Positions 16,857 to 31,925 are shown, counted from the first letter of the stretch. The stretch is 32,000 nucleotides of DNA from Candidatus Hadarchaeales archaeon (GCA_038823825.1 JAWBCC010000001.1:330001-362000), one strand, 5' to 3'. The notes: a model not told the origin generated them from the letters alone. Program-made: numbers and translations.

Positions 16857-16892
16857 AAGACTTTTGCTTTTTCTGACAATAAGATTAATTTG

Positions 16893-17984
16893 ATGTGGCT
16901 CCCGTTTCGGCCAGATTCGCTTGAAGTACTATCGGATCCACTCGCGAGAAAATCGCTGAATAGATATTTCGCTGTAATGGAGGACAAATTGCCTGCAAGG
17001 TTCCAAATATGCAAGAGAATTTCCGTAAAAATCGATCTTTCGTCGGATGAAAGCATACTTTTAGCCGAACACAAAGCGGCTATGGAGAAGTTCTGGAAAA
17101 CTCTTTCGAAAATCGACGATGGGAAAATAAGGCTACAAGAAATGGAAATCCCGGAAGTTTCTCTTCTCGAACTGAAGATCGAACTTGCTAAGCGAATTCT
17201 CAGAAAATGTCATTTCTGCGAACGGAGGTGTGGAGTAGACAGAACGATTGGTGAGAGAGGAGCTTGTGGGGTCGGAGAAAAGCCAAAAGTGGCTTCGGAG
17301 TTCATGCATTACGGAGAGGAGCCGGAACTAGTTCCGAGCTACACAATATTTTTCTCAGGCTGTACGTTCAAGTGTAGATTTTGCCAGAATTGGGATATCT
17401 CGCAATTTCCGGACGAAGGTACGGAGGCGAATCCAAGAATCTTGGCAAGACTCGTTGAAAATGCGAGAGATAATGGAGCGAGAAACGTGAACTGGGTAGG
17501 AGGAGATCCGACGCCAAACCTTCACGCTATCTTGGAGGCCCTTTGGTTTTGCAAGACTAACATACCAAGTGTGTGGAACTCAAACATGTATCTGACCACC
17601 GAAGCGATGGATTTACTGGCAGGCACTCAGGACATCTACTTGACGGATTTTAAGTACGGAAACGATAAGTGCGCGGAGAGACTTTCTCTAGTTAAAAACT
17701 ACTTTGCTGTCGTTTCTAGAAATCACAAAATTGCTGCTGCGGACTCGGAGTTGATCATAAGACATCTAGTCATGCCAAATCATCTTGAATGTTGCACTTA
17801 TCCGGTGCTGGAATGGATTGCGAAAAATCTTGGACATGAAACTCGCGTGAATATCATGGATCAGTATAGACCAGAATATCTCGCGCCGAAATTTGAAGAC
17901 ATAAACCGTAGGATAACGGTAGAGGAGATGGACAAGGCTCTCAGCTATGCACGAAAGTTTGGTCTGAAAAACATCATTACTTGA
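16893..17984 (+). CDS. Radical SAM enzyme, PflX-like (pyruvate formate-lyase activase homologue family)
   Basis: The ORF is open from TTG 16890 and ATG is at 16893. It has CHFCERRCGVDR..GERGACG (PflX-type N-terminal Cys motif), the radical SAM CTFKCRFCQNW (CxxxCxxC), and a GGDPTPNL glycine-rich SAM motif. Confidence 0.8.
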   Translation: MWLPFRPDSLEVLSDPLARKSLNRYFAVMEDKLPARFQICKRISVKIDLSSDESILLAEHKAAMEKFWKTLSKIDDGKIRLQEMEIPEVSLLELKIELAKRILRKCHFCERRCGVDRTIGERGACGVGEKPKVASEFMHYGEEPELVPSYTIFFSGCTFKCRFCQNWDISQFPDEGTEANPRILARLVENARDNGARNVNWVGGDPTPNLHAILEALWFCKTNIPSVWNSNMYLTTEAMDLLAGTQDIYLTDFKYGNDKCAERLSLVKNYFAVVSRNHKIAAADSELIIRHLVMPNHLECCTYPVLEWIAKNLGHETRVNIMDQYRPEYLAPKFEDINRRITVEEMDKALSYARKFGLKNIIT

Positions 17985-17988
17985 AAAA

Positions 17989-19080
17989 TCAGACGACCGC
18001 TTTTTCCGTTTTTGCGTCAAAAATGTGAATGTGTTTCATGTTAAATGTGATGGTTATCTTGTCTCCCATTTTCAAACCGATTTTTGGGGGAGCTTTGGCG
18101 ACCATTCTCAGGTTTCCTCTGCTCATATAGAGAAAATCTTCCGATCCGATCGGCTCTACTAGGTCTACTTTCATTTCTATAGTATTTTTTTCACCTTTTC
18201 TCGATATCAAAATGTCTTCGGGGCGAACTCCGGCAATCACTTCTCGACAGTCTGCTTTCCTGATTATTTTTGCGATTTCGGAAGGTAGTTCAATCGAAAA
18301 TTCGCCAGCATCCAAAATCACCTTGCTTTTTTTCATCACCACTGAAGCTCTGAAGAAATTGATCGGCGGTGTACCTATGAAGCCAGCTACAAATGTATTC
18401 GCTGGAAAGTCGTATATCTCCTCCGGAGTGCCAACCTGCTCGACTCTCCCGGCTCTCATCACTATCACCCTGTCTGCCATCGTCATTGCCTCGAGTTGGT
18501 CGTGCGTCACATGAATAGTGGTGATCTTTAACTCCTTCTGCAATTTGCGAAGTTCTGCTCTCATGATTACACGCATCTTGGCGTCAAGGTTAGAAAGTGG
18601 CTCGTCCCACAGGAAAATTTTTGGTTCACGGACGATCGCTCTTCCAAGGGCAACTCTTTGTTTTTGACCCCCACTAAGTTGGCTTGGCTTTCTTTCTAAA
18701 AGATGAGTTATATCCAATAGCTTGGCCGCATTTTTCACTCTTTTATCTACTTCTTCTTTATTGTAACCAAGATTTCTGAGTCCAAATGCCATGTTGTCAT
18801 AGACGGACATATGTGGATACAAAGCATAATCTTGGAAAACCATGGCAATCCCTCTGTCCCTGATTGCCACATCGTTGACGCAAACTTTACCAAAGTATAT
18901 ATACCCACTGTCGGGTTTTTCCAATCCGGCAATGAGTCTGAGCACGGTAGTTTTTCCACATCCGCTTGGCCCGACGATTACAGCGAGTTCTTTATCCGGA
19001 ATTGTAAAAGATACGTCGTTGACTGCTGTAACCTCTCCGAACCTTTTTGTCACATGGTCGAGCTTTACTGAGACCATCAA
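17989..19080 (-). CDS. Sugar-type ABC transporter ATP-binding protein (MalK/UgpC/MsmX-like)
   Basis: 363 aa. Walker A GPSGCGKTT, Q-loop VFQDYALYPH, signature LSGGQKQRVALGRA, Walker B IFLWDEPLSNLD, H-loop VTHDQ. It has a C-terminal TOBE-like regulatory domain of about 120 aa. Confidence 0.92.
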   Translation of the reverse strand: MMVSVKLDHVTKRFGEVTAVNDVSFTIPDKELAVIVGPSGCGKTTVLRLIAGLEKPDSGYIYFGKVCVNDVAIRDRGIAMVFQDYALYPHMSVYDNMAFGLRNLGYNKEEVDKRVKNAAKLLDITHLLERKPSQLSGGQKQRVALGRAIVREPKIFLWDEPLSNLDAKMRVIMRAELRKLQKELKITTIHVTHDQLEAMTMADRVIVMRAGRVEQVGTPEEIYDFPANTFVAGFIGTPPINFFRASVVMKKSKVILDAGEFSIELPSEIAKIIRKADCREVIAGVRPEDILISRKGEKNTIEMKVDLVEPIGSEDFLYMSRGNLRMVAKAPPKIGLKMGDKITITFNMKHIHIFDAKTEKAVV

Positions 19081-19178
19081 TCAAATTACATCCTAAATGG
19101 ATTTAAGCCATGTCTACTGCATGCATGTGATTTTTATCGGTTTCGAGGAGAAGCGAATAGGAGATGACATGTCTTATT

Positions 19179-19201
19179 CTTTTTAAAGGAACTTTTTAAA
19201 G
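19179..19201 (+). promoter_or_regulatory. Tandem TATA-like decamers CTTTTTAAAG (19179-19188 and 19192-19201)
   Basis: Two exact copies with a 13-bp period, ending 17 nt before the GTG start (19218) of the first glucanase gene. They lie in the 137-nt divergent spacer shared with the ABC ATPase gene. Confidence 0.35.
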
Positions 19202-19217
19202 TGATTAAAGTGAGTCT

Positions 19218-21050
19218 GTGAATTCCCTCGTCAAGAGATCCGTCGTGCTGGTTCTTGTGACCGCTAGCGTTCTTGGGGGCGTTTACATCAGCAGACCCTC
19301 AGGAACTAAAAAACCATCACTCGAGAAATGGGAGAAGGTTTATTCTTTCGCAATCGACTGGGAAGAGATTTCGAATACACCGATACGCTGGAGCGATATC
19401 GGTCAGGAAGAAAAATCTTTTCTGACAGATCTTCAAAGAAGGTCCTTTCTTTACTTTTGGGAAAAAGCCGACCAGGTCACAGGGCTCGTTTATGACAGAG
19501 CAAGCAATCCCGATATTTCAAGCATCGCGGCCACAGGTTTCGGTCTTTCTGCAATATGTGTGGCAGAGGCAAACGGATGGATTTCCAAAGATGAAGCATA
19601 CCAACGTGTCTTGAGGATACTAAAGAATTTTGATCCCGATAAACCGAGCGTGGAAGGCAAAAACGGGTTTTTCTATCATTTTGTCAATGCACGAACAGGC
19701 CGGAGAGCTTGGATGAGTGAAATCTCCTCCATTGACACAGCAATACTCATCGCAGGGGCTCTCCATGCCGGACAACACTTTAAGGGAACCGAAATCGAGA
19801 GCCTTGCTAGCAGGATTTATAAAGCAGTCCAGTGGGACTGGATGCTTCTCAACAACGGACTTTTGAGTATGGGATGGACGCCCGAAGGTGGATTCCTTTC
19901 TCCAGCCTCCGGATATAGCGAGTATATCCTGGCATATATCTTAGCCTTGGGCTCGCCCACTCACTCGATTCCCCCAAAAAGCTGGGATACATGGACCAGT
20001 ACCTTCAGTTGGTATTCGCACGATGGCAGACGATTCCTGACACCGGGCGGCCGGACAATGCTGGCATACCTTTATCAGTTTCCGGCTTGCTGGATCGATT
20101 TCAGAAACATTCATGATGGAAAGGCAAACTATTGGTTAGAGGGAGTAGCCGCTTTAAAGGCAAATAGACTGTTTTGTTTGGAGGAATCTCGAGTTAACCG
20201 CTGGCCAGCTGTTTGGGGGTGGACAGCCTGTGATGGAATAAATGGTTATCTTGGTTTCAGAAATACTTTTGATGGAACTGTTGCTCCATCAGCGGTAGCC
20301 GCGGCCATCCCATTCATTCCTGAAAACGCAATCCTTGATCTGATGAGAATGTACTGGGAATATTCTGAGAAAATTTGGGGAGAGTACGGTTTTGTGAATG
20401 CGTTTAACCCTAGTCAAAACTGGTTCGATAATGACTATATAGGAATCGATCAAGGCAACACGGTTCTAATGCTTGAGGCCTTCAAAAGTGGATCAGTTTG
20501 GAAAGAGTTCATGAGTATACCTTATATTATCAACGCTTTGCGGAAGGCGGGTTTTGTTGAGGGATTTCACCATGACAGCGGAGGATTTGTGAAAGACTGG
20601 ATAGTGATAGGACCCTTTGGTTTGGGGGAGGCTGAAGCCTTCAATTCCGATTTTGTCGGAGAAACTTCATTATTGTTTTACAAATCTGGAGAGCGTATTG
20701 CGGGAAGAGAATGGGTCGAACATCACGCGCCATATGGCGATCCGGTGTCTAGGTTCATTGATTTTTGTCAAATTTTAGGGCCATATGAAGAAACGGGGGC
20801 TTACGCTTTTACGGTGATTTATTCGCCATCGAAGAAGACCGTGGAACTCAGGGTGGGAAGTGATGATTCTGTCAAGGTCTGGATAAATGGGAAACTTGTT
20901 CATTCTAATCGGGTTGCTAGGGCCGCCGCTCCGGATCAAGATATCATACCAGATATATGGCTTGAAGAGGGAACCAGCACAATATTGGTGAAAGTTTGCA
21001 ACAAAGCAGGCGGCTGGGGATTCTACTTAAGGATACTTGAAAAGAAATAA
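19218..21050 (+). CDS. Membrane-anchored glycoside hydrolase, PF10091 'glycoamylase'/GH144-like (endo-beta-1,2-glucanase family) with C-terminal beta-sandwich domain
   Basis: 610 aa, GTG start, N-terminal signal-anchor VVLVLVTASVLGGVYI. Catalytic-region blocks: LQRRSFLYFWEKADQVTGLV, IAATGFGLSA, NGFFYHFVNARTGRR, SEISSIDTAILIAGAL, WDWM, YILALGSPTH.IP, WGWTACDG, WGEYGFVNAF, IGIDQGNTVLMLEAF..GSVWKEFM...ALRKAGF. These match my memory of PF10091/GH144 proteins. A C-terminal part of about 160 aa (WIVIGPF...GSDDSVKVWINGKLV...ILVKVCN..GGWGFYLRI) looks like a lectin/jelly-roll module. Confidence 0.75.
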   Translation: MNSLVKRSVVLVLVTASVLGGVYISRPSGTKKPSLEKWEKVYSFAIDWEEISNTPIRWSDIGQEEKSFLTDLQRRSFLYFWEKADQVTGLVYDRASNPDISSIAATGFGLSAICVAEANGWISKDEAYQRVLRILKNFDPDKPSVEGKNGFFYHFVNARTGRRAWMSEISSIDTAILIAGALHAGQHFKGTEIESLASRIYKAVQWDWMLLNNGLLSMGWTPEGGFLSPASGYSEYILAYILALGSPTHSIPPKSWDTWTSTFSWYSHDGRRFLTPGGRTMLAYLYQFPACWIDFRNIHDGKANYWLEGVAALKANRLFCLEESRVNRWPAVWGWTACDGINGYLGFRNTFDGTVAPSAVAAAIPFIPENAILDLMRMYWEYSEKIWGEYGFVNAFNPSQNWFDNDYIGIDQGNTVLMLEAFKSGSVWKEFMSIPYIINALRKAGFVEGFHHDSGGFVKDWIVIGPFGLGEAEAFNSDFVGETSLLFYKSGERIAGREWVEHHAPYGDPVSRFIDFCQILGPYEETGAYAFTVIYSPSKKTVELRVGSDDSVKVWINGKLVHSNRVARAAAPDQDIIPDIWLEEGTSTILVKVCNKAGGWGFYLRILEKK

Positions 21051-21087
21051 AAAAGAAAAAAGAATGTGCCTCCGGGAATCTAGCCTT

Positions 21088-21936
21088 TTACTCAAATGCT
21101 ATCCAGTCTATCCAGAGCTTACCCTGAACAGGTCCCTCGAAGACTATGTTAATTTGTCTGATATCCTTCAGGTTCAGCGATCCGGCTTGTTGAACAAACT
21201 GCACAAGGGGTATCTCTATTACTTCCCATTCTGTTTTCGCAGTTCTGTGAACTTTTCCGTTGTGACTGTCAGTGGCCGTGTGGACGTCCGCATTTGTCAT
21301 TCTCTCGATATCCTCTGGCGCGCGTCCAAAAAGTTCTCGAGAAAGGTTCTCGATTGATTTTCCATATTTGCTCAACACAATGTCTCTATAAGCAGTGTTA
21401 TTTCTGAAGTTGTTGTCAGATATCTTAAACACCCGCGCCGCATTCTGGGCATTTGAAAACTGCAAAGTATCCTGAAGCTCAACTTTGAAACTCATCGCTT
21501 TGCTGGCCTTTACAGCCATCTTTAGCGTTGTATAGCCGCTGAGGTCATAACCGGATCCTATACTTACCAGAATCGGATCGGTAGAGATGTCTCCGGACTT
21601 TAGGAAACACCAGTAACCGCTCCACCCCCCCTGCGGAACATCGATTGTCATTTGAATAGCAAGACCAGTAGAGGTGGGCACGAAAGCACAGTACTCATTA
21701 CCGGGATCTGGCGGATACCCACCCATTGTTCCGACTGGAGTACCCAAGTTGGTTCCGAGCGATTCGTCATCGAAGTCGTCGAGAACGAGTGCCCCGGAAG
21801 GAATAGTTATTCCGCTTTCAACTTTTTCTTCTCTGCGAAGCAGTAAAACTGCTCCCACAATAACTATGAAAACCACGAGAACCACGATTCCCAGAAGCAC
21901 CTTGTTTTTCTTTAGGTTGACACTTGTCTCAGTCAT
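21088..21936 (-). CDS. Membrane-anchored carbohydrate-binding-module-like protein (CBM11/CIA30-like beta-sandwich)
   Basis: 282 aa. N-terminal anchor VLLGIVVLVVFIVIVGAVLLL is followed by LDDFDDESLGTNLG...GGWSGYWCFL...YTTLKMAVKA...SFKVELQD...WEVIEIPL..F......L.DIRQINIVFEG...GKLWIDWIAFE. This pattern is typical of non-catalytic glycan-binding modules. The family assignment is tentative. Confidence 0.5.
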   Translation of the reverse strand: MTETSVNLKKNKVLLGIVVLVVFIVIVGAVLLLRREEKVESGITIPSGALVLDDFDDESLGTNLGTPVGTMGGYPPDPGNEYCAFVPTSTGLAIQMTIDVPQGGWSGYWCFLKSGDISTDPILVSIGSGYDLSGYTTLKMAVKASKAMSFKVELQDTLQFSNAQNAARVFKISDNNFRNNTAYRDIVLSKYGKSIENLSRELFGRAPEDIERMTNADVHTATDSHNGKVHRTAKTEWEVIEIPLVQFVQQAGSLNLKDIRQINIVFEGPVQGKLWIDWIAFE

Positions 21937-21945
21937 TTTCTCTGG

Positions 21946-22045
21946 GAAAAACTCGCTTGGATTTCCATATATACATGCAGGATAAAAATCCTCGTTTTTC
22001 TAAATTTTCGCAAAGATTCGAATATATTAAAAGGAGAAAAACTCG
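21946..22045. repeat. Direct 10-mer repeat GAAAAACTCG (21946-21955 and 22036-22045) in a divergent control region
   Basis: Two exact copies 90 bp apart in the 155-nt spacer between the CBM-like gene (start 21936, minus) and the 946-aa hydrolase gene (start 22092, plus). The first copy lies 9 nt from the minus-strand start codon. Confidence 0.6.
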
Positions 22046-22091
22046 GGGAAAACCAATTTATTTCTAATGAGGATACTCTTACAGGGTTAAA

Positions 22092-24932
22092 TTGAGATTG
22101 AAAAAAACCCTGCTGCTGATATGGCCGCTTTTTATTGTTTTAGTTGGGGTGCTTGTTTTACGTTTTTCTCACACGTCATCCGGGTATTACTTATACATTG
22201 TAGATCCACATGGGGACGATTACGGACCAGGAACGTATACCTATCCGGTAGACTTCACCTTCAGGCTGGAGAACTTTGGTAAGAGAGAAACTTTCGACGT
22301 GGTGGAGTTTAAGGTCTATGAAAAAAATGACAAGGAAATCGTCTTTGAGTATAGACTTGCACAACCTATTGTTGATCCTTGGGGCCTAAGCTCAAAGCCA
22401 TACCCGATCAGCGTACACGGAATCGACATCTACATAGACACGGGAAAGCCGGGAGGGCACACAGAAACGATATTTGATAAGACTGTGCCCGGAAATCTAG
22501 AAATGAACCCCTCCGGAACGATAAACGCAAAAATAAGTGAGGATGCCGCTTGGGAGTACGCGGTAAGAGCTCATGGCTGGGAGGTTGCTATCTTCAGAAA
22601 TCCGACTGGTGAAAATGGAGGGAAAATTAAAGTAGGTTCGCTCGAAGTGGATAAGGAAAAGGGAATTATACGTATTCTCATCCCAAACCGTATAACGGGA
22701 AGACCCAGCTCTGACTGGAAGATTGTCACGTACATTTTTGGCATAGACTACGGAAATGCTAGAGTTGTTAACGCTCACGCGTCCGCTTGGAATTTTGGTG
22801 GAGGTAGAGACGATAATTCAGATCCGAACATTATTGATCTCATAGTTCCACCGGGCACGACTCAGGAGGAAATCTTGAATTTCGAAAAAGGCGCTGTTTT
22901 TCTACCCGGTATCCCATTGACTTCGAAATCCTATACATCTCAGAAAGGCAGAATCATGGTTAAGCCGCTAGAAACCGGACTGAGTCCTGAAGAAATTCCT
23001 CCAATGGATAACATTCTCAATGAAATCGTCAGAAGAGGCATCATGTATTTCTGGGATTTCTCAGATAAAGAAACCGGTCTCGTTCGCGATACTACTAAGT
23101 ATCCGAATGATGAGTTTCCAGCAAGTGTAGCGGCGACAGGTTTCGGTCTGACATCCTTGATAATAGGAGCGCACAGAGGGTGGTTGGATAACCAACTTGT
23201 TTATGAACACATTTTGAGAACTCTAAGGAGTTTCAGGGATAACGTTGCCCAGCATAACGGCTTTTTCTATCACTTCGTTAGGATGTCAACGGGTGAACGC
23301 TGGGAACCAGCAAAACTCGGAAAACCGGGCGAATCTTCTGAACTCTCCTCCATAGATACAGCACTCTTTTTAGCTGGTGCTCTAACAGCGGCAGAATATT
23401 ACAAAGGAACAGAGGTAGAAGTCCTGGCCAAGGAAATCTATGAACGTGTCAGATGGGACTGGATGCTTGCAGACGATAATACTTTGTATCATGGATGGAC
23501 GCCAGAAAGAGGATTCCTCCCACACAAGTGGGAATATTATGCGGAGTCTATGATTCTCTACCTTCTGGCGATGGGTTCTCCCACGCATCCAATTCCTCCA
23601 AGCAGTTGGGATGCATGGGAGAGACCGTTGGCAAACATCGGAACTAGGAGGATGTACATAATGTCTCCGCCGGAAAGTCTCTTTACATACCAATATTCTC
23701 ACGCGTGGATAGACTTCAGAAACAAGCATGATAGGTATGCGGATTACTGGCAGAATTCTATCAACGCTATCTATAACAACAGGAATTTTGTAATCTGGGT
23801 AGCAATAAACAATCCTGGTAAATATAGCGCTTTCGGGGAGGATATTTGGGGACTAACTGCCGGAGATGCTCCGTGTGCAAAAACTGGCTATAAGAACTAC
23901 GGAGCATATCTGGGGGGATATGACGGAACCATTCATCCTTACGGCATGGTCGCTTCTCTCCCCTTTGTTCCGGAGCTTTCCATGCGCGGAATACAAGCGC
24001 TTCTCCAGAGGTATGGAAGAGAAATCTGGAGAGAATATGGATTCACTAGCGGTTTTAATCCAGACATTGATTGGTATTCCCGAGATTACACAGGGATCGA
24101 TGTCGGGATCCAAGTCATAATGGTGCAGAATTACTTGGACAATTTTGTTTGGAATCTTTTCATGAGAAATGATTATATTAAAAACGCCATACGCCTTGCT
24201 GGATTTGTTGAAGGAACACTGGAAAATGGCCGAGCTGTGACTGTAGAATACGAACAGAAATATCTCAAGCCGGTGGAAGTGAAGGAAACCATCGCTTCTA
24301 AAGCTCCACCAACTATAAAAATCGATGGTTTGTTGTCGGATTGGTCAGAAGCAACTTTCGAGACCGTGGGACCGCAAGACGTCGTTCTCGGGTCGATAAG
24401 GTCCGATATTGAAAACGTCAGGGGAAGGTTTGCTGCGGCATGGGACAAAAACTTCCTGTATCTAGCTTGTGATGTCACGGATACCATACTTGTCACAAAC
24501 ATAGAGCCAGATGATATTCACAGCCTATACCGTACCGATAGCATAGAGTTTTACATTCAGCCAGACAGATTCGTGCCTGGAGCTGCTGGAATTTTCAAAA
24601 TTGCGGCAATACCATTTGATACAAAAGGAAACCCGCAGGCATGTAGACATGAAGATGTCAATCCTGGACCGATATCTATGGTTGCTCCCGAGGTGAAGCT
24701 CGCATCAAGCAGAACTTCAAACGGTTATGTGATCGAAATCGCTATCCCCTGGAAATACCTTGGCCTGGAGCCTGCAGAGGGTGTGAAGATAGGGCTTAAT
24801 TTCACGATTCAAAATACGTACATCAGGGACGCGGAGCCCGGCGAATATGTAAGAACTGCCATGCTTTCTTGGATAAGGGTGCCGGTTGTCTGGGCGAGAC
24901 CATCAACATGGGGGGTGCTTACACTAACATAA
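22092..24932 (+). CDS. Multidomain membrane-anchored PF10091/GH144-like glycoside hydrolase (glucodextranase-C-like N-domain + catalytic domain + CBM9-like C-domain)
   Basis: 946 aa, TTG start, anchor LLLIWPLFIVLVGVLVL. The N-domain has DPHGDDYGPGTYTYP...FDVVEFKVYEK...DPWG...IDIYIDTG (glucodextranase C-terminal-like module). The catalytic domain (about nt 22990-24216) is paralogous to 19218-21050: MYFWDF.DKETGLV, VAATGFGL, NGFFYHFV, SELSSIDTALFLAGAL, WDWM, LLAMGSPTHPIP, WGLTAGD, WREYGF, TGIDVGIQVIMVQNY, LAGFVEG. The C-domain IKIDGLLSDW...AAAWDKNFLYLACDVTD...DSIEFYIQP...GYVIEIAIPW resembles CBM9. Confidence 0.75.
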   Translation: MRLKKTLLLIWPLFIVLVGVLVLRFSHTSSGYYLYIVDPHGDDYGPGTYTYPVDFTFRLENFGKRETFDVVEFKVYEKNDKEIVFEYRLAQPIVDPWGLSSKPYPISVHGIDIYIDTGKPGGHTETIFDKTVPGNLEMNPSGTINAKISEDAAWEYAVRAHGWEVAIFRNPTGENGGKIKVGSLEVDKEKGIIRILIPNRITGRPSSDWKIVTYIFGIDYGNARVVNAHASAWNFGGGRDDNSDPNIIDLIVPPGTTQEEILNFEKGAVFLPGIPLTSKSYTSQKGRIMVKPLETGLSPEEIPPMDNILNEIVRRGIMYFWDFSDKETGLVRDTTKYPNDEFPASVAATGFGLTSLIIGAHRGWLDNQLVYEHILRTLRSFRDNVAQHNGFFYHFVRMSTGERWEPAKLGKPGESSELSSIDTALFLAGALTAAEYYKGTEVEVLAKEIYERVRWDWMLADDNTLYHGWTPERGFLPHKWEYYAESMILYLLAMGSPTHPIPPSSWDAWERPLANIGTRRMYIMSPPESLFTYQYSHAWIDFRNKHDRYADYWQNSINAIYNNRNFVIWVAINNPGKYSAFGEDIWGLTAGDAPCAKTGYKNYGAYLGGYDGTIHPYGMVASLPFVPELSMRGIQALLQRYGREIWREYGFTSGFNPDIDWYSRDYTGIDVGIQVIMVQNYLDNFVWNLFMRNDYIKNAIRLAGFVEGTLENGRAVTVEYEQKYLKPVEVKETIASKAPPTIKIDGLLSDWSEATFETVGPQDVVLGSIRSDIENVRGRFAAAWDKNFLYLACDVTDTILVTNIEPDDIHSLYRTDSIEFYIQPDRFVPGAAGIFKIAAIPFDTKGNPQACRHEDVNPGPISMVAPEVKLASSRTSNGYVIEIAIPWKYLGLEPAEGVKIGLNFTIQNTYIRDAEPGEYVRTAMLSWIRVPVVWARPSTWGVLTLT

Positions 24933-24963
24933 GCAATAAAAATATCGCGAAAGAGGTGAGTAG

Positions 24964-26241
24964 GTGAATATGGATAACAGAGGGCTAAGCACGAAAATAA
25001 TTGCTGTGGGTATTGGTATCGTGATAATCATCGCCGCCCTTGTTGTGCTGATTCCCAGAGGTGAGAAAGAAAAGGAGTCTATAGTCGTTTATCATTACTG
25101 GACCGCTGGAGCAGACAAGCAAGCTGTTAGCATGCTTTCTCAGATGTTCGAGAATCGAACCGGGATTAAACCGAAAATGAACGCCTTTACAGGATATCAG
25201 GACAAGTTAAACCTAGTCATCGACACGAGCCCACCAGACGTCGCCGCCCATTGGTTTAACAATTTTTATGTTGGCTACGCACGCCGCGGATCTCTTTTGG
25301 ATCTAACGGATTTCTGGCAATCTGAAGGCTTAAATCAAATATTTCCAGAAAAAATTTCAAGACTTCTTGAGGTTGACGGAAAAAAGTATGGTGTCCCGCT
25401 GGACATTCACTGGGAAGGCGGAGTAGTCATTTATAATCTAAGAGTGCTGCGTGCTAAAGGGCTGAACGTTCCGACAACTTGGGGGGAGTTTGAGGCCTTG
25501 CTGGAAGCACTGAAGGCAAGCGGTGTGGAACATCCGATCGCGATGGGCTTCAAGGATGCTTGGCCCAGAGACATGGTCTTTACGGCGCTTCTTGCCTCGA
25601 TAGGCGGTGCAGATTTCTACATTGGACTAACAAGGGGAGAAAATCGATGGACGGACGCACCGGTTCAACAAGCTTTCGAGATCTATCGACAATGGTGTGA
25701 AAAAGGTTACTTCGATCCATCGGCTCCCGGATTAGACTGGCAGGAAGCCTTAAGCACTTTCATAAATGGAGAAACGGCGATTTACTTCATGGGCGATTGG
25801 GCTTGCGCGGCCCTCAAGCAGATAGGCTGGAAGCCCAACGTTGATTTCATCGCGGATTTCCTCCCATTCAAGAGCGGTGTTAGACCGATCGGTATTCCGG
25901 ACGTTGAAGGTTTCGTGATACCTTCTAAGGCGAAGAATGCACAAGCCGCAAAGGAATTCCTGAAATTTATCACGGATAAGAATGTTCAGATATCCTTTGC
26001 TTCTATAAAAGGTAGCTTCGCTCCGCACAAGGACGCGAGAGTTGAAGACTATGCAGACAGCGTTCAAATCGCTATGTGGAGAAAGGCCGAAAATTGGGAT
26101 TGGGCCCTACCGCTGATGTGGTACTATCCGCAGACTGTAAGAAATGTCTTCGGAGACAAAATGTATGAGATCTGGGCGAATCCAAGAACAGTTAACATCA
26201 CTCAAATTTGTGAGGCGATTCAAGCAGTTGTTGGGGGGTGA
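24964..26241 (+). CDS. ABC transporter sugar-binding protein (solute-binding protein family 1), N-terminally anchored
   Basis: 425 aa from GTG 24964, with GAGGTG 5 nt upstream; ATG 24970 is an alternative start. The N-terminus MNMDNRGLSTKIIAVGIGIVIIIAALVVLI is followed by VVYHYW...PDV......VDGKKYGVPLD...GVVIYN...W.EF......HPIAMG...YFMGDW, typical of CUT1-type SBPs. Confidence 0.85.
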   Translation: MNMDNRGLSTKIIAVGIGIVIIIAALVVLIPRGEKEKESIVVYHYWTAGADKQAVSMLSQMFENRTGIKPKMNAFTGYQDKLNLVIDTSPPDVAAHWFNNFYVGYARRGSLLDLTDFWQSEGLNQIFPEKISRLLEVDGKKYGVPLDIHWEGGVVIYNLRVLRAKGLNVPTTWGEFEALLEALKASGVEHPIAMGFKDAWPRDMVFTALLASIGGADFYIGLTRGENRWTDAPVQQAFEIYRQWCEKGYFDPSAPGLDWQEALSTFINGETAIYFMGDWACAALKQIGWKPNVDFIADFLPFKSGVRPIGIPDVEGFVIPSKAKNAQAAKEFLKFITDKNVQISFASIKGSFAPHKDARVEDYADSVQIAMWRKAENWDWALPLMWYYPQTVRNVFGDKMYEIWANPRTVNITQICEAIQAVVGG

Positions 26242-27356
26242 AAAAGTTCCCCTACGCTGGTAAAACCGGTAATGGGGAAGCCCGCCAAAGGTTAGAGGAG
26301 GAGTTCAGAGAAGAGGAAAAACCAGAAAAAACAGCCTTTCTCTTTCTTCTAATTCCACTGTTGTGCATAGGTTTCGTGATTTTCACGATAGTTTACCTTT
26401 TTGCGGCAAGTTTTACCTCAAACGGGGAATTTGTGGGACTCCAGAACTTTGTAAAGCTTTTCACAGAGGACCCATACTTCTGGCCAGCCCTATGGCACAA
26501 TCTTTTCTGGATGATCTGGGCTATTCTGATCCCGGTAGGACTCGGATTTATCCTAGCGTTTATCCTAAGCGCAGGGTTAAAGGGCGAAGGATTTTTCAAG
26601 GGCGTGATATACTTTCCAGCACTCCTGTCCGGAGCCACAATCGGAGTGATATGGAGCTGGTTTTTCCTCCCGAAAGATAACGGAGTTCTGAATTTTATCC
26701 TGAGCAAGCTCGGGCTGATGGGTTTAGCCAATCCCACTACTAAACTTTGGATAAACGATCCTTCCAGCCCAGTTCCATTTCTCTGGATAATAACTATTCC
26801 TGTGTTTGCGATTTCGGTCATGGTGATTTTGTTGTCATTCTTTCCGAAAGTATCCGATTTGTCGCTTGTTTTGATTGTCAGTTTATTCGGCATTGGGATT
26901 CCAGCGATCCTTTACAAGACTGGGGCAGTCTCCACCTCGCTGGTTTCAATCCTCATCGCATCAACTTGGGCGGGATCCGCGGTATCCATGGTTATGTTTC
27001 TGGCTGGAATGAGAGCAATCCCAAAAAGTGTTTTAGAAGCGGCAAAGGTCGACTGTGCTTCTTGGTTTCAGACACTTAGGCACGTCATCCTACCATATCT
27101 TCGTCCTGTTTTCACCATCCTCATTGTGCTCTCCGCGATAAGCTCCGTTAAGGCCTTTGACTTAGTCTACACACTTGCTGGGCAAGAGGGTGGAGCTGGG
27201 CACCACGCCGCAGATGTTCTAGCTCTTTACATCTATCGCAGCCTGAAGATAGGAAACTACGGATATGCGAGCGCCATAGGAGTTATCGGGATACTAGTTG
27301 CAATAGCGCCTGTTATCATCTACATTACTTTGATGAGGAGGAGGGAAGAAGAATGA
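26238..27356 (+). CDS. ABC sugar transporter permease (MalF/UgpA-like) with extra hydrophobic insertion
   Basis: 372 aa with a GTGA overlap with the SBP stop. It has the EAA loop LEAAKVDCASWFQTLRHVILPYLRP. It is about 70-80 aa longer than typical CUT1 permeases because of a charged N-terminal tail and an insertion around aa 181-230. Confidence 0.85.
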   Translation: MKKFPYAGKTGNGEARQRLEEEFREEEKPEKTAFLFLLIPLLCIGFVIFTIVYLFAASFTSNGEFVGLQNFVKLFTEDPYFWPALWHNLFWMIWAILIPVGLGFILAFILSAGLKGEGFFKGVIYFPALLSGATIGVIWSWFFLPKDNGVLNFILSKLGLMGLANPTTKLWINDPSSPVPFLWIITIPVFAISVMVILLSFFPKVSDLSLVLIVSLFGIGIPAILYKTGAVSTSLVSILIASTWAGSAVSMVMFLAGMRAIPKSVLEAAKVDCASWFQTLRHVILPYLRPVFTILIVLSAISSVKAFDLVYTLAGQEGGAGHHAADVLALYIYRSLKIGNYGYASAIGVIGILVAIAPVIIYITLMRRREEE

Positions 27357-28189
27357 GTGAAAAGAGCACAAAGATTCTTTATGTGATTGTTTTTTTCATA
27401 TGCATTATATGGGTCTTGCCGCTCATCACCGTGATATTCGCATCATTCAAACCGGAGGTGGAGATAAGGACGGGTAATCCTCTCTATCCGCCTACGGATC
27501 CAACTACTAGCAATTACTCAGATGCTCTTTATGAGGGAAGCCCGCCGCTCCTTACCGCTTTCAAAAACACTCTGATAATAACGACCCCTGCTGTGCTCGG
27601 TTCAGTCTTTTTGGGCGCTCTAGCGGCGTATCCTTTAGCAAGGCTGAAATTTAAAGGAAGCACGACAGTATACCTTTTGTTACTCTTCGGGATGATGTTT
27701 CCATTTCAATTGGTAATGGTTCCGGTTTTCAAGGCTGCAGATTTCCTCGGTCTTTACGAGACGACCACCGGAAACTATCTGGCGGTGATAGGCACGCATA
27801 TCATCTTTGGTGTGCCTTTCTGCGCTTTTATTCTTAGAAACTTCTTCAAAACTGTGCCCAGATCTCTCCAGGATGCCGCAATGATCGACGGATGTTCTCA
27901 TTTCTCATTTTTCTTCAGAATTCTTCTTCCCCTCTCTCTGCCAGCCTTGGCTGTCATATCTCTCCTGCAGTTCACAGGAATCTATAACGATATGCTGTGG
28001 GCGCTGGTTTTGATGAGGTATACCGACACATACCCTGTTGCGACAACTCTAGCCAGCTTATCAACAACGGCCGGCGTGCCGTATGGGCTTCTCTGTGCGG
28101 CAGGCTTTTTGGCAGTCCTCCCCACGCTAATCCTTTTCATACTGTTGCAAAGATATTTCATACAGGGGTTGGCCGCGGTAGGTCAGTAA
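27353..28189 (+). CDS. ABC sugar transporter permease (MalG/UgpE-like)
   Basis: 278 aa with an ATGA overlap with the preceding permease. It has the EAA loop QDAAMIDGCSHFSFFFRILLPLSLPAL and six hydrophobic segments. Confidence 0.9.
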   Translation: MSEKSTKILYVIVFFICIIWVLPLITVIFASFKPEVEIRTGNPLYPPTDPTTSNYSDALYEGSPPLLTAFKNTLIITTPAVLGSVFLGALAAYPLARLKFKGSTTVYLLLLFGMMFPFQLVMVPVFKAADFLGLYETTTGNYLAVIGTHIIFGVPFCAFILRNFFKTVPRSLQDAAMIDGCSHFSFFFRILLPLSLPALAVISLLQFTGIYNDMLWALVLMRYTDTYPVATTLASLSTTAGVPYGLLCAAGFLAVLPTLILFILLQRYFIQGLAAVGQ

Positions 28190-30573
28190 ACCTTTCCCAT
28201 TCTCACAATGATCTTGTGAATCTTTCCGTCACCTATTGGTGGTATCACCGGTTCCGCAAGTTTTTTGTTGTCTAGAATAACTTCACGCACGCCGGTATTC
28301 ACACCTTCAGGATTTTCTACCTCGATTTCATAAATCGCTCCTCTGAATTTTCTGATAACCCTGAACCTCTTCCAGCTTTTTGGAATGCAGGGGTCGATGA
28401 GTAGGCCTTTTTCAACCGGCCTTACTCCAAGAATCCACTCCGTGCAAACTTTAAACATCCAAGCTGCAGATCCAGTATACCATGTCCAGCTTCCTCTTCC
28501 ATAATTCTTGGCTGTAGGTCCGTCGGTGTTCCCCGGTAGAACATAAGGTTCGGCCTGATATGCGTCAGCGTCTAATGCTCGCAGCGGCGGACACATTCTG
28601 CGGAAGATGTCGTACGCTTTTTCCGCTTCTCGTAATTTACAATATGCCAGTATGCACCATGTCCCAGCGTGTGTGTAAACTCCTCCGTTTTCTCTTAAAC
28701 CAGGAGCATAGCGCGTAATATATCCGATTGTGTTATCGGGTTTCGTGTAAGCTGGATGTAACAAAAGAGGTCCATAATCCATTAAAAGATACTTTTCAAT
28801 TGCTTGTTTTATCTTATCAACCCTTTCGGGTGGAGTGATCTCGTTTATTATGGCCCAAGTCTGCGCATTTAGATATATCCTTCCTTCTTCACATGTTTTA
28901 CTCCCGATTAGACTGCCATCATCTTTTGATGCCCTCCAGTACCACTCACCGTCCCATCCATATTCGTTTATTTTCTCTTTCAATTCTTCAGCTCTTCTTT
29001 CGTATAGCGCTGCTTTTTCATTTAGTCCGACTTTTCTACAAACTTTGGCGAATCTTTTCAGTAGACCATACAGGAAATGTCCTAACCAGATTGATTCTCC
29101 TTTCCACTGCAAACCTACTGCGCTCAAACCGTCGTTCCAATCTCCGGCGCCAATCAGCGGAAGTCCGCGAGGACTAAAGCGAGAGAGCGCTAAATCTATC
29201 GCCTTCAGACAATGATTCAAAATGGTGTCCTCGGGCCCGTCAACGTAAGGTACTTTTTCCTCCAGTATTTTGTAGTCATCAGTTTCTTCAAGATAGAATG
29301 TCAGGATGTACGGGAGCCAGAGCATATTATCGGAAATGTTTGTTCTCATGCCGATTGTCGTTCCGGGATGCCACCAGTGATAGACTGCACCATCTTGGAA
29401 CTGCGCACAGGCATGCAGCAAGATTTGCTTTTTGGTTATCTCAGGATCTAACGGGAGCGCAATCAGGCTACTCTGGAGCTGATCTCTGAAGCCATAAGCT
29501 CCGGAGCACTGGTAGTAGCCAGTTCTAGCCCACATGTGTCCGGAGAGGGCCTGGTATTTTAGCCAGTAGTTAATGAGAATGTTGAACGCATTATCCGGAG
29601 TTTCGACCAATATGCCAGACACGAGATTTTCCCAAAAATCAATCACCTTCCGTAACGCCTCTTCGACGTTGATCGGGTCATGATATTTTCTGATCAAACT
29701 TTCGATCTTCTCTCTTTTTTCGGCCCCAAGCAAGAAAATGATAGTTTTTTCCTCACCGGGCTTCAGATGAATTCTGACGTGGAGACTCGCGATGCTGTCG
29801 CAGAACTTTCCAACATTTCCCGAGAGTCTGCCACTTTCCACAGCTGCGGGCCTGCGTATGTCTCCTCGCCTACCCAAAAAAGAGAGTTTGTCTCCTTCAA
29901 AACCTTCTGGTTTCATGTTGACTGAGTGGAAGGCTTCGAGCGGGATTTCTGGCTGTCCTGTGCTGATGTATCTCGGCGTCGGGAGTGGACGCTTCTTTGC
30001 AAATATACAGTTGAGATCCGTAATATATTCAGTCTCTATAAATGTTTTGTGAAACTCGCGATGTGTATCCATTCCGTTTCCGAGACACCACTCAAGATAC
30101 GTGAACAGACTGATAGCACGAGAGCGCGCGGAGGAGTTTCTCAACTTTACACGCCATATTTCCAGCGGTTCTCCGATTGGTACAAAAACGAGCATCGAAC
30201 AGTCTAAACCAGACCTTGCGCTTTTGATCTCTGTGTATCCCAAACCGTGTACAACCTCGTATTTCTCAAAATCTGGACAGCAGGGTTTCCATCCCAAAGA
30301 CCAGAATTCACCATTTTCATCGTCGCGCACATAGATGTACTTTCCATATTCGTCGCGGATGAGATCTTGATGCCAAATGTTCAACCTAGCGAGAGCAGAG
30401 TTTCCTCTCCAGCTGAAGCCGCTACCAGCCTGGGAGATGGCTAACCCATAGTCTCCATTACATATTATGTTCACCCATGGCGCTGGAGTGTCGGGCCTAG
30501 TTATTACAAATTCCCTGCCGTTTTTCGTGAAGTATCCGTACTTGTTTGACAAAAGTCTCTGCTCCTGTGACAT
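28183..30573 (-). CDS. GH94 glycoside phosphorylase (cellobiose/chitobiose/cellodextrin/laminaribiose phosphorylase-like)
   Basis: 796 aa with no signal peptide. It has N-terminal KYGYFTKNGREFVITRPDTPAPWVN, the catalytic-Asp block IGAGDWNDGLS, the phosphate-site block RENGGVYTHAGTW, and WYTGSAAW. Length and motifs fit the roughly 800-aa disaccharide phosphorylase branch of GH94. Substrate cannot be read from the sequence by eye. Confidence 0.9.
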   Translation of the reverse strand: MSQEQRLLSNKYGYFTKNGREFVITRPDTPAPWVNIICNGDYGLAISQAGSGFSWRGNSALARLNIWHQDLIRDEYGKYIYVRDDENGEFWSLGWKPCCPDFEKYEVVHGLGYTEIKSARSGLDCSMLVFVPIGEPLEIWRVKLRNSSARSRAISLFTYLEWCLGNGMDTHREFHKTFIETEYITDLNCIFAKKRPLPTPRYISTGQPEIPLEAFHSVNMKPEGFEGDKLSFLGRRGDIRRPAAVESGRLSGNVGKFCDSIASLHVRIHLKPGEEKTIIFLLGAEKREKIESLIRKYHDPINVEEALRKVIDFWENLVSGILVETPDNAFNILINYWLKYQALSGHMWARTGYYQCSGAYGFRDQLQSSLIALPLDPEITKKQILLHACAQFQDGAVYHWWHPGTTIGMRTNISDNMLWLPYILTFYLEETDDYKILEEKVPYVDGPEDTILNHCLKAIDLALSRFSPRGLPLIGAGDWNDGLSAVGLQWKGESIWLGHFLYGLLKRFAKVCRKVGLNEKAALYERRAEELKEKINEYGWDGEWYWRASKDDGSLIGSKTCEEGRIYLNAQTWAIINEITPPERVDKIKQAIEKYLLMDYGPLLLHPAYTKPDNTIGYITRYAPGLRENGGVYTHAGTWCILAYCKLREAEKAYDIFRRMCPPLRALDADAYQAEPYVLPGNTDGPTAKNYGRGSWTWYTGSAAWMFKVCTEWILGVRPVEKGLLIDPCIPKSWKRFRVIRKFRGAIYEIEVENPEGVNTGVREVILDNKKLAEPVIPPIGDGKIHKIIVRMGKVY

Positions 30574-30603
30574 GGACCTCTAGAAAACTACTCATGCGAT
30601 TTT

Positions 30604-30663
30604 TTTAGTTTTCGTGCACGCAAGAGAAGCTAAATGGTGTTTTGTAAAAAAACGAAAACTAAA
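30604..30663. repeat. Perfect 12-bp inverted repeat TTTAGTTTTCGT / ACGAAAACTAAA with 36-nt spacer; a third GAAAACTA copy lies at 30583-30590
   Basis: Arms at 30604-30615 and 30652-30663 verified base by base. They lie in the 176-nt divergent spacer between the GH94 gene (start 30573, minus) and the signal-less SBP gene (start 30750, plus). The left arm overlaps an A-rich TATA-like block about 28 nt from the GH94 start. Confidence 0.8.
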
Positions 30664-30749
30664 TTAAAATTCTTTTTTGGAACTAATTTTACTCTAGCTT
30701 TTTCCAAAAAGGGTTAAAACCTTTGCTGTCTTAAATAAAATGTGAGAGG

Positions 30750-31925
30750 GTGAAAGAAAAGCTTGAAGTTTATCACTTCTGGATAGGGCATGAGCATGCA
30801 CCAATAAAAAGTTTCTTGGATTTTTTTGCGAGAAAGTATTCAATTGAGGTCAGAGACATAGCGATGGAATGGGGTATCCATAGCGCGATAACTCAGGCTA
30901 AAGTTATGAGAGAGAATCCGCCCGATATCGTAGCCACGGATATAGGACGGAGGCTGGCTGATTACGTTAAAACTGGCGAAATTGCCGAAGTCGAAAAGAT
31001 CTGGTCGAGTAAAAGTCTCAAAAAAGCAATACCGGACTGGATAAAAGAAGCCTGCAGCGTAGACGGCAAAATCTACGGTGTGCCGTCTAAATGTTTCACC
31101 TTTGCAGTCTGGTATCTGAAAAGAGTCTTCAAAAAGTACAACTTAGAACCTCCGGAAAGCTGGGACGAATTTTTAGAAATATGTAAGAAACTTTCCCAGA
31201 AAGGTATCAGACCAATAGTCTCTAGTTCTTGGGAGGTTTCTCTCTGGTTTGAGAACATCTTGGTTCGATTTGTGGGGCCGGATTTTTACAACGCTTTGAT
31301 GAGGGGCGAAGAGAGCTGGCTGGATCCGCGTGTTATCGAGGCTTATGAAACCTTGAGAGAGCTTTCGGAGTATTTCTTGCCAGGACCATTCAGCTATAGT
31401 TTTCGCGAGTCTTGGGAGGCTCTAAACGCTGAAAAAGCGGTCATGCAACTTCAAGGAGATTGGGTTAATGAGATGTGGAAGGTCGGTTATGGCTATAAAC
31501 CGGGTGTTGACTATGACTTTTTCTTGATACCGCCGATAGATGACAAAGTAGGTCATGTCATGATAACCGGTGGAAACGCTTGGTTGATGACTAAAAGAGC
31601 TCCACACAAGAATGAAGCTAAAACTTTCATGACTTTCGCCGCATCCAAAAGGGCCCACGAAATACTGGCAAAGGAAGGGATGGGCATAATGAGCAGAATC
31701 GATGTTCCTGAGCAACTCTATGATCCCGTCTCCTTAAGATTGCTCAAGAGTCTACAGAAATATCCTAATGTGCTTCAAATGGACGCGATACTGCCGGCTA
31801 CCGTGTTGAGCGTGGAAAGATTACAGCAGGCACAAATCGTTTTGGGAGAGGAATTTAGCAGGAAGCGAATAGAGGCGCTTTTAGAAGAGATCCAGAAAGT
31901 AAGTGAAGGAATCCGACAGAGGTGA
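30750..31925 (+). CDS. Solute-binding-protein-family-1 paralogue lacking any signal peptide or membrane anchor
   Basis: 391 aa, GTG start. An in-frame TAA at 30732-30734 excludes an N-terminal extension. The sequence starts directly at the mature-domain block EKLEVYHFW, which aligns with ESIVVYHYW at aa 38-46 of the SBP at 24964. Further shared blocks are VDGKIYGVP and W.EF. Confidence 0.75.
   Translation: MKEKLEVYHFWIGHEHAPIKSFLDFFARKYSIEVRDIAMEWGIHSAITQAKVMRENPPDIVATDIGRRLADYVKTGEIAEVEKIWSSKSLKKAIPDWIKEACSVDGKIYGVPSKCFTFAVWYLKRVFKKYNLEPPESWDEFLEICKKLSQKGIRPIVSSSWEVSLWFENILVRFVGPDFYNALMRGEESWLDPRVIEAYETLRELSEYFLPGPFSYSFRESWEALNAEKAVMQLQGDWVNEMWKVGYGYKPGVDYDFFLIPPIDDKVGHVMITGGNAWLMTKRAPHKNEAKTFMTFAASKRAHEILAKEGMGIMSRIDVPEQLYDPVSLRLLKSLQKYPNVLQMDAILPATVLSVERLQQAQIVLGEEFSRKRIEALLEEIQKVSEGIRQR

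Follow-up and report, generated by a model that had tools for sequence, protein, structure and literature searches.

Can an archaeon with a small genome harvest beta-1,2-glucan, and if so, which enzyme would finish the breakdown inside the cell? The question is raised by a locus in a stretch of 32,000 nucleotides from Candidatus Hadarchaeales archaeon (GCA_038823825.1, JAWBCC010000001.1:330001-362000); this whole stretch is called the window in the following, and the locus lies at its positions 17989-31925. The beta-1,2-glucans are bacterial products serving osmoregulation, symbiosis and infection, and what is known of the enzymes degrading them comes from work on bacteria and fungi. According to Pfam and NCBIfam domain calls on the open reading frames of the window, nine intact frames fill the locus (Table 1). 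An earlier description made without database searches (the sequence-only reading) had listed eight elements here: two anchored PF10091/GH144-like enzymes, an anchored protein resembling a carbohydrate-binding module (CBM), a solute-binding protein (SBP) with two permeases and an opposite-strand MalK-like ATPase, and a signal-less GH94 enzyme with a DWND block. All eight were recovered at the coordinates given, and a ninth gene, SBP2, which it had not singled out, was added.

We consider it likely that this is a beta-1,2-glucan utilisation locus. In the scheme that we propose, the two membrane-tethered GH144 enzymes (GH144a and GH144b) would cut linear or cyclic beta-1,2-glucan from neighbouring bacteria to sophoro-oligosaccharides, and the Glucodextran_C and CBM9 modules, the beta-rich C-terminal domain of GH144a and the anchored CBM11-like protein may help to bind the polymer. 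The anchored solute-binding protein SBP1 would capture the sophoro-oligosaccharides, which the two permeases and the MalK-type ATPase would import. In the cytoplasm the GH94 enzyme would use phosphate to remove the glucose at the non-reducing end as alpha-glucose-1-phosphate, and one of the PGM/PMM-family mutases, of which the genome has three paralogues, could convert this into glucose-6-phosphate for glycolysis. We infer the substrate and every reaction of this scheme from the gene content, the protein families, the catalytic residues, the predicted topology, the conservation and the gene linkage.

Predicted surface enzymes and importer

Both hydrolases scored far above the curated PF10091 cut-off of 27 bits (GH144a 184 bits, GH144b 213 bits). 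Their top match among solved structures was XcSGL (XCC2207, 8xul; E 4e-64 and 39.8% identity for GH144a, E 2.7e-72 and 41.1% for GH144b), followed by 4gl3 and by CpSGL (5gzh; E 2.6e-45 and 2e-43, respectively, identity 31-32%). By profile score as well as by likeness to characterised enzymes they belong to GH144, in agreement with the family predicted for them. Alignment mapping placed the general-acid Glu (E211 in CpSGL, E239 in XcSGL) at E235 of GH144a and E485 of GH144b; the acidic residue at the position of CpSGL E142, a candidate base, is D173 and D422, and the clan-defining aromatic residue (F268) is Y284 and F531. The catalytic roles of these residues are taken from a previous study, where the acid at the E142 position is the favoured general base (PMC12102758). 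Among many glucans tested XcSGL and CpSGL were active on beta-1,2-glucan only, and all GH144 members that have been characterised act specifically on this glucan or on oligosaccharides derived from it (PMC12102758). Judged from their sequences, GH144a and GH144b are predicted extracellular endo-beta-1,2-glucanases.

The hydropathy scan revealed one N-terminal hydrophobic segment in each of GH144a, GH144b, the 282-residue CBM-like protein and SBP1, none in GH94, the ATPase and SBP2, and polytopic permeases, which bears out the anchors and the signal-less phosphorylase described earlier. In GH144a the anchor (residues 4-22) is followed by an (alpha/alpha)6 catalytic domain (about 64-451) and a beta-rich C-terminal domain (about 453-610). 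Residues 453-610 had no Pfam match, and within the searched set their homologues were confined to the Hadarchaeota orthologs; the AlphaFold2 (AF2) model of this domain, built from 5 sequences, had a pLDDT of 62, and Foldseek returned no significant fold match for it (best E 0.009). GH144b consists of an anchor (7-25), a Glucodextran_C surface module (36-263), the catalytic domain (about 283-710) and a CBM9 (751-946); this architecture is kept in the Hadarchaeales orthologs (62-87% identity), and the next relatives are bacterial (43-56%).

A third GH144 paralogue was detected outside the window (G000:C1:12841-16941, equal to L114:4841-8941, plus strand; G, C and L numbers are our handles for genomes, contigs and loci). 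It has 1,366 residues, in which CBM30/CBM11-like modules, PF10091 and three CBM96 are combined and the catalytic pair is conserved as E541/D478. The gene stands isolated amid pyrimidine and purine biosynthesis genes, and the genome G045 of the same genus has this paralogue too, as a frame of 1,389 residues. Three GH144 genes are a notable investment for a genome of 1 Mb.

The anchored CBM-like protein, proposed as such by the sequence-only reading, has a transmembrane segment (residues 13-31) and a helical insert of about 60 residues (163-221), and its modelled structure (AF2, pLDDT 86, pTM 0.79) supports the designation at fold level. The best Foldseek match of the model was CBM11 (6r31, E 9e-8, TM-score 0.72 on the target) and CBM30 came next, the beta-sandwich matches of both kinds having E values of about 1e-7 and TM-scores of 0.65-0.72 on the target. 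Among 5.8 billion proteins 10 homologues were found, and the sole named one comes from Hadarchaeales; the protein is lineage-specific, found only in this order. In all four related loci (4/4) its gene sits between the two GH144 genes.

The components of a CUT1-type importer are complete, with SBP_bac_1 for binding, two permeases of the MalF/MalG type and a MalK-type ATPase that carries the regulatory OB/TOBE domain at its C-terminus. The ATPase scored 457 bits against the NCBIfam UgpC/MalK-type model NF008653 (cut-off 432), and its ortholog keeps its position in the genomes G046 and G045. Among solved structures SBP1, with its transmembrane segment at residues 12-30, matched best AcbH, the T. 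thermophilus glucose-binding protein and the chito-oligosaccharide binders NagB1/2. In the same search it was no close relative of the sophoro-oligosaccharide binder Lin1841 (5ysb; E 4e-10, rank 20), and the ligand of SBP1 cannot be inferred from its sequence.

The GH94 phosphorylase

The predicted GH94 family was recovered as well. The enzyme scored 274 bits with PF06165 and 377 bits with PF17167, it combines the supersandwich with the (alpha/alpha)6 domain, and its catalytic residue D481 belongs to a GDWND block at residues 477-481. The residues R363, D364, W479, E628 and H635 do not vary among the 83 members of the clade described below. The sequence-only reading had cautioned that characterised 1,2-beta-oligoglucan phosphorylases (SOGP) are much longer, and it was right to do so. 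The long SOGP type was rejected, since the enzyme has 796 residues with a single PF06165 stretch and one N-terminal sandwich domain, as against about 1,080 residues with a duplicated N-terminal sandwich; no SOGP chain occurred among its 20 PDB sequence matches (E <= 0.001).

With the whole sequence the top PDB match was the GH94 domain of A. tumefaciens Cgs (E 1e-166). To call the enzyme closest to Cgs by E value alone was rejected, since its lead in the whole-sequence comparison reflects an additional hit on the sandwich domain that is duplicated in Cgs. When both references are compared over one span, residues 10-586, the enzyme shares 39.1% identity with Cgs and 34.5% with the cellobiose phosphorylase (CBP) of C. 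thermocellum (CtCBP), the full-length identity to CtCBP being 35.5%.

The active-site motifs are more telling. The CBP block GEISTYPPGYKENAGIFCH reads GYITRYAPGLRENGGVYTH in the archaeal enzyme, and the match line with Cgs is GYI..Y.PG.RENGG.YTH. Y618 stands at the position of CBP Glu649, R627 at that of Lys658, and a Tyr replaces a Phe, all of them states common with Cgs. We take Glu649, from the literature on CBP engineering, to be a determinant of the +1 site of CBP. A loop of 15-17 residues follows the DWND block in CtCBP, and it is present neither in the archaeal enzyme nor in Cgs. Both of these also lack a three-residue CBP insert (GIGRG), the archaeal enzyme reading QCSGAYGFRD and Cgs QSSGAFGFRD; the corresponding CBP motif ESGIGRGMGFRD contains the Arg equivalent to C. 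gilvus R362, which protrudes into the would-be subsite +2 (PMC5309861). The spacing R627-E628...Y633-x-H635 equals R916-E917...Y922-x-H924 of LpSOGP, where R916 contacts the glucose in subsite +1 (PMC5309861), and Y618 stands nine residues before R627, where LpSOGP has R907; both comparisons use spacings from the published numbering, not an alignment. The insert, Y618, R627 and loop states were found in 83 of the 83 clade members, with no exception.

In a quick IQ-TREE tree of 91 rows, whose references were CtCBP and a partial Cgs only (LpSOGP, CgCBP, ChBP and CBAP lay outside its sampling), the five locus-linked GH94 proteins of Hadarchaeota formed one clade (SH-aLRT 100), sister to a sequence from a Desulfobacteraceae metagenome-assembled genome (97). 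Both were nested in the 83-member, mostly bacterial clade (96) of Omnitrophota, Planctomycetota, Ignavibacteriota, KSB1 and others. CtCBP stood apart (SH-aLRT 96-99), and with it grouped the other Hadarchaeota GH94 proteins, which are not linked to GH144 (in G007, G056, G016 and G005; e.g. G007:C60). The refuting outcome named by the sequence-only reading, a GH94 grouping tightly with cellobiose phosphorylases, was thus not observed. An annotation as cellobiose phosphorylase (EC 2.4.1.20) was rejected on account of this separate clade and of the missing Arg362 insert, Glu649, Lys658 and post-DWND loop.

The gene neighbourhood points in the same direction. Among 80 bacterial loci with an orthologous GH94, a PF10091-type reading frame lay within the flank in 51 and was directly adjacent in 37; this association is far beyond chance, since PF10091 was present in only one of 14 control genomes. 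We conclude from the motifs and the tree that the GH94 is not CBP-like; our argument on the enzyme rests on the motifs, the same-span identity and the gene context, and not on E values. The enzyme represents a distinct, uncharacterised short subfamily with Cgs-like active-site motifs.

The Omnitrophota showed an arrangement of their own. In most of them the next gene downstream of GH94, which has the same orientation, encodes a protein of 650-800 residues, whose C-terminal half is a divergent PF10091 + DUF3131 region (75-85 bits) and whose N-terminal part of about 290 residues has no family (e.g. L061:12381-14540, L023:11844-14018, L057:3754-5880). The two genes form a conserved module in most Omnitrophota loci (L019-L084). 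One Omnitrophota locus (L030) carries a protein of 1,773 residues (17039-22357, plus strand) in which two GH94 sandwich stretches accompany a catalytic domain of the same family, besides a short GH94 and two GH144 genes; Cgs falls on a long branch together with this protein.

Such partners could suggest that the GH94 acts chiefly in the direction of synthesis and makes or shortens a beta-1,2-glucan inside the cell or associated with it, like the length-control domain of Cgs, with which it has its active-site motifs in common; the locus would then remodel glucan and not catabolise it. The divergent PF10091/DUF3131 protein is of the same broad family as the cyclase domain of Cgs, and that domain is homologous to GH144 (PMC10901819). 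We hold a role in synthesis or remodelling to be very unlikely here: the predicted topology puts the two GH144 enzymes, the CBM-like protein and SBP1 on the outer side, the GH94 is cytoplasmic beside an importer, and no GT84-type synthase gene is present in the locus.

If the locus serves utilisation, which enzyme splits the last disaccharide? Family searches revealed no GH1, GH3, GH35, GH5 or GH30 gene in the genome, which is 95.8% complete. A GH116 beta-glucosidase was rejected, the sole DUF608 hit being an alpha-glucan enzyme of the GH57/GDE type with 1,470 residues, and a GH2 beta-glucosidase likewise, the sole GH2_C hit being a GH158-like protein of clan GH-A. With the five families missing from these searches and no convincing GH116 candidate either, GH94 probably takes the breakdown to, or through, sophorose. 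Either it also splits sophorose, unlike the SOGP type, or an unrecognised glucosidase exists. Should GH94 phosphorolyse sophorose, an archaeon with 1 Mb of DNA would need no beta-glucosidase.

The two proteins behind these hits were looked at for themselves. The frame of 1,470 residues (G000:C1:139926-144335, minus strand) is membrane-tethered, with an N-terminal GH57-type 'HQP' domain and a C-terminal GDE_C-like (alpha/alpha)6 domain, and is probably a surface alpha-glucan-degrading enzyme. The GH158-like protein (G000:C1:41607-43664, L123:1177-3234, minus strand; 685 residues) has a clan GH-A TIM barrel nearest to GH158 (9oro, E 1.7e-11), a family of endo-beta-1,3-glucanases; it is possibly another beta-glucan enzyme, unlinked to the locus.

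SBP2 might belong to the same intracellular step. Its frame is not extendable upstream, an in-frame TAA standing at 30732, 6 codons before the start. Orthologs, all devoid of an anchor, occur in 5 of the 5 GH144-bearing Hadarchaeota genomes, and the ortholog adjoins GH94 in four of them (G000, G045, G003, G046), the copy of G008 being on a short separate contig. Cytoplasmic proteins of the SBP fold are unusual; more signal-less SBP paralogues exist elsewhere (e.g. G008:C7, G003:C1). A cytoplasmic sensor or a substrate-holding partner of the phosphorylase is our speculation for SBP2. Joining the two threads, we tentatively put forward, as a possible but rather doubtful extension, that the short GH94 subfamily has a specificity new to the family: an enzyme of CBP size, its subsite +2 left open, would phosphorolyse beta-1,2-gluco-oligosaccharides and sophorose as well, and SBP2 would be its cytoplasmic oligosaccharide-binding partner, acting as sensor or carrier.

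Several observations weigh against the proposed scheme. In phmmer the best-domain scores of the GH94 are nearly equal for Cgs (487.5) and CtCBP (483.8), and in the tree the stem of the subfamily is closer to the clade of CBP-like enzymes than to Cgs on its long branch; the Cgs-like motifs could be ancestral states and not markers of beta-1,2 specificity, and to our knowledge the substrate of no member of the short subfamily has been established. SBP1 is nearer to glucose/galactose and chito-oligosaccharide binders than to Lin1841, the fold relatives CBM11, CBM30 and CBM9 bind beta-1,3-1,4 or beta-1,4 glycans, and the incompleteness of the genome bears on the missing glucosidases. The near-equal domain scores and the relatives of SBP1, together with the full-length identity to CtCBP, the JGI label of cellobiose phosphorylase on close GH94 homologues, the CBM11/CBM30 fold of the accessory protein and the CBM9 on GH144b, would suit another target, such as cellulose or cellodextrin, mixed-linkage or beta-1,3-glucan, with GH94 as a cellobiose or laminaribiose phosphorylase. 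The PF10091 enzymes would then have a specificity new to GH144, whereas the characterised members are all beta-1,2-specific (PMC12102758). Moreover the GH94 has none of three features forming the +1 site of CBP, namely the Arg362 insert, Glu649 and the loop behind the catalytic Asp, its clade differs from that of CtCBP, its subfamily is linked to PF10091 genes over many phyla, and the genome has no GH5 cellulase. Another glucan is therefore regarded as unlikely, and beta-1,2-glucan is retained as the likely substrate.

Conservation, origin and setting of the locus

The plus-strand run GH144b-SBP1-permease 1-permease 2 is tightly packed, with the starts of both permeases overlapping the preceding stops. 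The ATPase and GH144a genes are divergent, and the GH94 gene is convergent with permease 2 and divergent from SBP2.

Table 1. Genes of the locus, with positions counted from the first nucleotide of the window
Gene product	Length (aa)	Position	Strand	Domains and matches
MalK/UgpC-type ABC ATPase	363	17989-19080	-	ABC_tran + OB_MalK + TOBE_2
GH144a	610	19218-21050	+	PF10091 (E 3.5e-54)
Anchored CBM-like protein	282	21088-21936	-	weak CIA30/CBM30 matches
GH144b	946	22092-24932	+	Glucodextran_C + PF10091 (E 5.7e-63) + CBM9
SBP1, anchored solute-binding protein	425	24964-26241	+	SBP_bac_1 (E 1.3e-32)
ABC permease 1	372	26238-27356	+	BPD_transp_1; weak GlcT/UgpA/MalF-type matches
ABC permease 2	278	27353-28189	+	BPD_transp_1; GlcU/MalG-type matches
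GH94 phosphorylase	796	28183-30573	-	PF06165 (E 1.5e-81) + PF17167 (E 1.7e-112)
SBP2, signal-less solute-binding-protein paralogue	391	30750-31925	+	SBP_bac_1 (E 1.2e-22)

No common 10-mers were found in the divergent intergenic regions 19081-19217, 21937-22091 and 30574-30749, nor shared 12-mers with one mismatch or 14-mers with two, that could represent a shared operator.

The locus stands on a contig of 463 kb in a genome of 1.05 Mb with an archaeal small-subunit (SSU) rRNA. Upstream it is flanked by TYW2/Taw2, RNase HII and a radical-SAM enzyme, downstream by a ValRS-type synthetase, an ATP-dependent DNA ligase and TiaS, which is specific to archaea. For GH94, GH144b and the 282-residue protein the closest records that carry a name are from Candidatus Hadarchaeota/Hadarchaeales archaeon. 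A mis-binned bacterial contig was excluded on the basis of the SSU rRNA, the archaeal flanking genes and the orthologous contigs of other Hadarchaeota.

The nine-gene order is fully syntenic in another genus (G046), and on the truncated contigs of G045, G003 and G008 the order is kept up to the contig ends. PF10091 was detected in 5 of 66 Hadarchaeota species, which belong to three genera of one family, and all five also have GH94. The archaeal GH94 copies most likely descend from a single bacterial donation, judged from the tree, and the whole enzyme set is probably of bacterial origin. A recent transfer was rejected, since the base composition of the locus matches that of the genome (45.4% and 46.0% GC).

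A bacterial origin of GH94, the patchy distribution and an SBP2 without signal sequence could also be expected of a horizontally acquired remnant that is decaying or silent and has no present role. We find this highly improbable: the nine frames are intact with their catalytic residues kept, order and content are preserved over three genera at 50-87% identity, the GC content equals that of the genome, and a third GH144 paralogue is maintained in 1.05 Mb. A functional utilisation locus remains the preferred reading.

Two further features of the window were recorded. The radical-SAM gene (16890-17984, plus strand), which has weak AmmeMemoRadiSam/activase matches, and the ATPase gene have their stops 4 bp apart; no evidence was found tying the former to the glycan locus. 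At 7399-11474 (plus strand) two proteins overlap, one of 725 residues that weakly matches the T2SSE secretion ATPase and one of 641 residues with no family match, and they may be an archaeal surface-filament or secretion pair.

Comparison with known systems

In the literature searched, no work on archaea dealt with GH144, with GH94-linked metabolism or with the metabolism of beta-1,2-glucan, in line with the earlier remark that a characterised archaeal locus was not known. Loci of this type are common in bacteria, and the archaeal example is new within that literature, in which no earlier gene set of an archaeon for beta-1,2-glucan harvest would precede it. Our reading implies that Hadarchaeales with small genomes, in habitats that are hot and anoxic, live on polymers released by their bacterial neighbours. 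The GH144 glucanases and the GH94 are probably thermostable and would be useful for making sophoro-oligosaccharides. The locus also sharpens the question of the role of the short GH94 in GH144 clusters, as no other enzyme that could finish the pathway is visible in the genome.

A close relative in design is the cluster IALB_1177-1187 of I. album, which holds an ABC transporter, two GH144 and a GH94 described as a 'homolog of the C-terminal SOGP domain of Cgs' (PMC8861115), and has no beta-glucosidase according to the discussion of that paper (Kobayashi et al. 2022, PMC8861115). Its host, like the archaeon, is from a hot spring, and GH94 proteins of Ignavibacteriota with two GH144 neighbours fall in the 83-member clade of the archaeal enzyme. 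The I. album system is bacterial, with a TonB-dependent outer-membrane step and the GH35 transglycosylase IaSGT, whereas the archaeal locus and genome have no GH35; the archaeal enzymes are membrane-anchored, and the extra CBM11-like anchored protein and the signal-less SBP paralogue are added.

In C. aurantiacus the cluster Chy400_4165-4178 combines two GH144 SGLs, ABC importers and the GH94 Chy400_4165, the substrates of which 'have not been sufficiently presumed' according to its authors (PMC13731917). Unlike the archaeal locus it contains a GH3 beta-glucosidase and a GH35, and it has a binding protein, Chy400_4166, with a specialisation for cyclic glucans. The GH94 proteins of I. album and C. 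aurantiacus are likely the published, uncharacterised counterparts of the short subfamily (PMC8861115, PMC13731917).

The locus of Listeria innocua, with Lin1839 (SOGP), Lin1840 (GH3) and Lin1841-1843 (ABC transporter; PMC3960220, PMC5309861), follows the same logic of CUT1-type import of beta-1,2-gluco-oligosaccharides and cytoplasmic GH94 phosphorolysis to glucose-1-phosphate. However, the Listeria SOGP is a monomer of about 1,080 residues whose duplicated N-terminal domain closes the pocket, and it is inactive on sophorose, which is hydrolysed by the GH3; GH144 is missing from that locus, and Lin1841 is remote from SBP1.

Among single enzymes, the GH94 domain of Cgs has in common with the archaeal protein the motifs YQ[CS]SGA[YF]GFRDQLQ and GYIxxYxPGxRENGGxYTH and the short loop after DWND, but it is part of a membrane synthase of about 2,800 residues, which has another sandwich domain and a Rossmann-like insertion, and its long branch in the tree is not joined specifically to the clade of the archaeal enzyme. 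The Cgs domain acts on beta-1,2-glucan chains. The CBPs (C. thermocellum 3qde; Cellvibrio gilvus 2cqs) agree with the archaeal GH94 in length, in the architecture of two domains plus a barrel, in the catalytic Asp and in the phosphate-binding His. Compared with the bacterial clusters as a whole, the archaeal locus works without GH3 or GH35 partners, and membrane anchors take the place of the periplasmic and outer-membrane steps.

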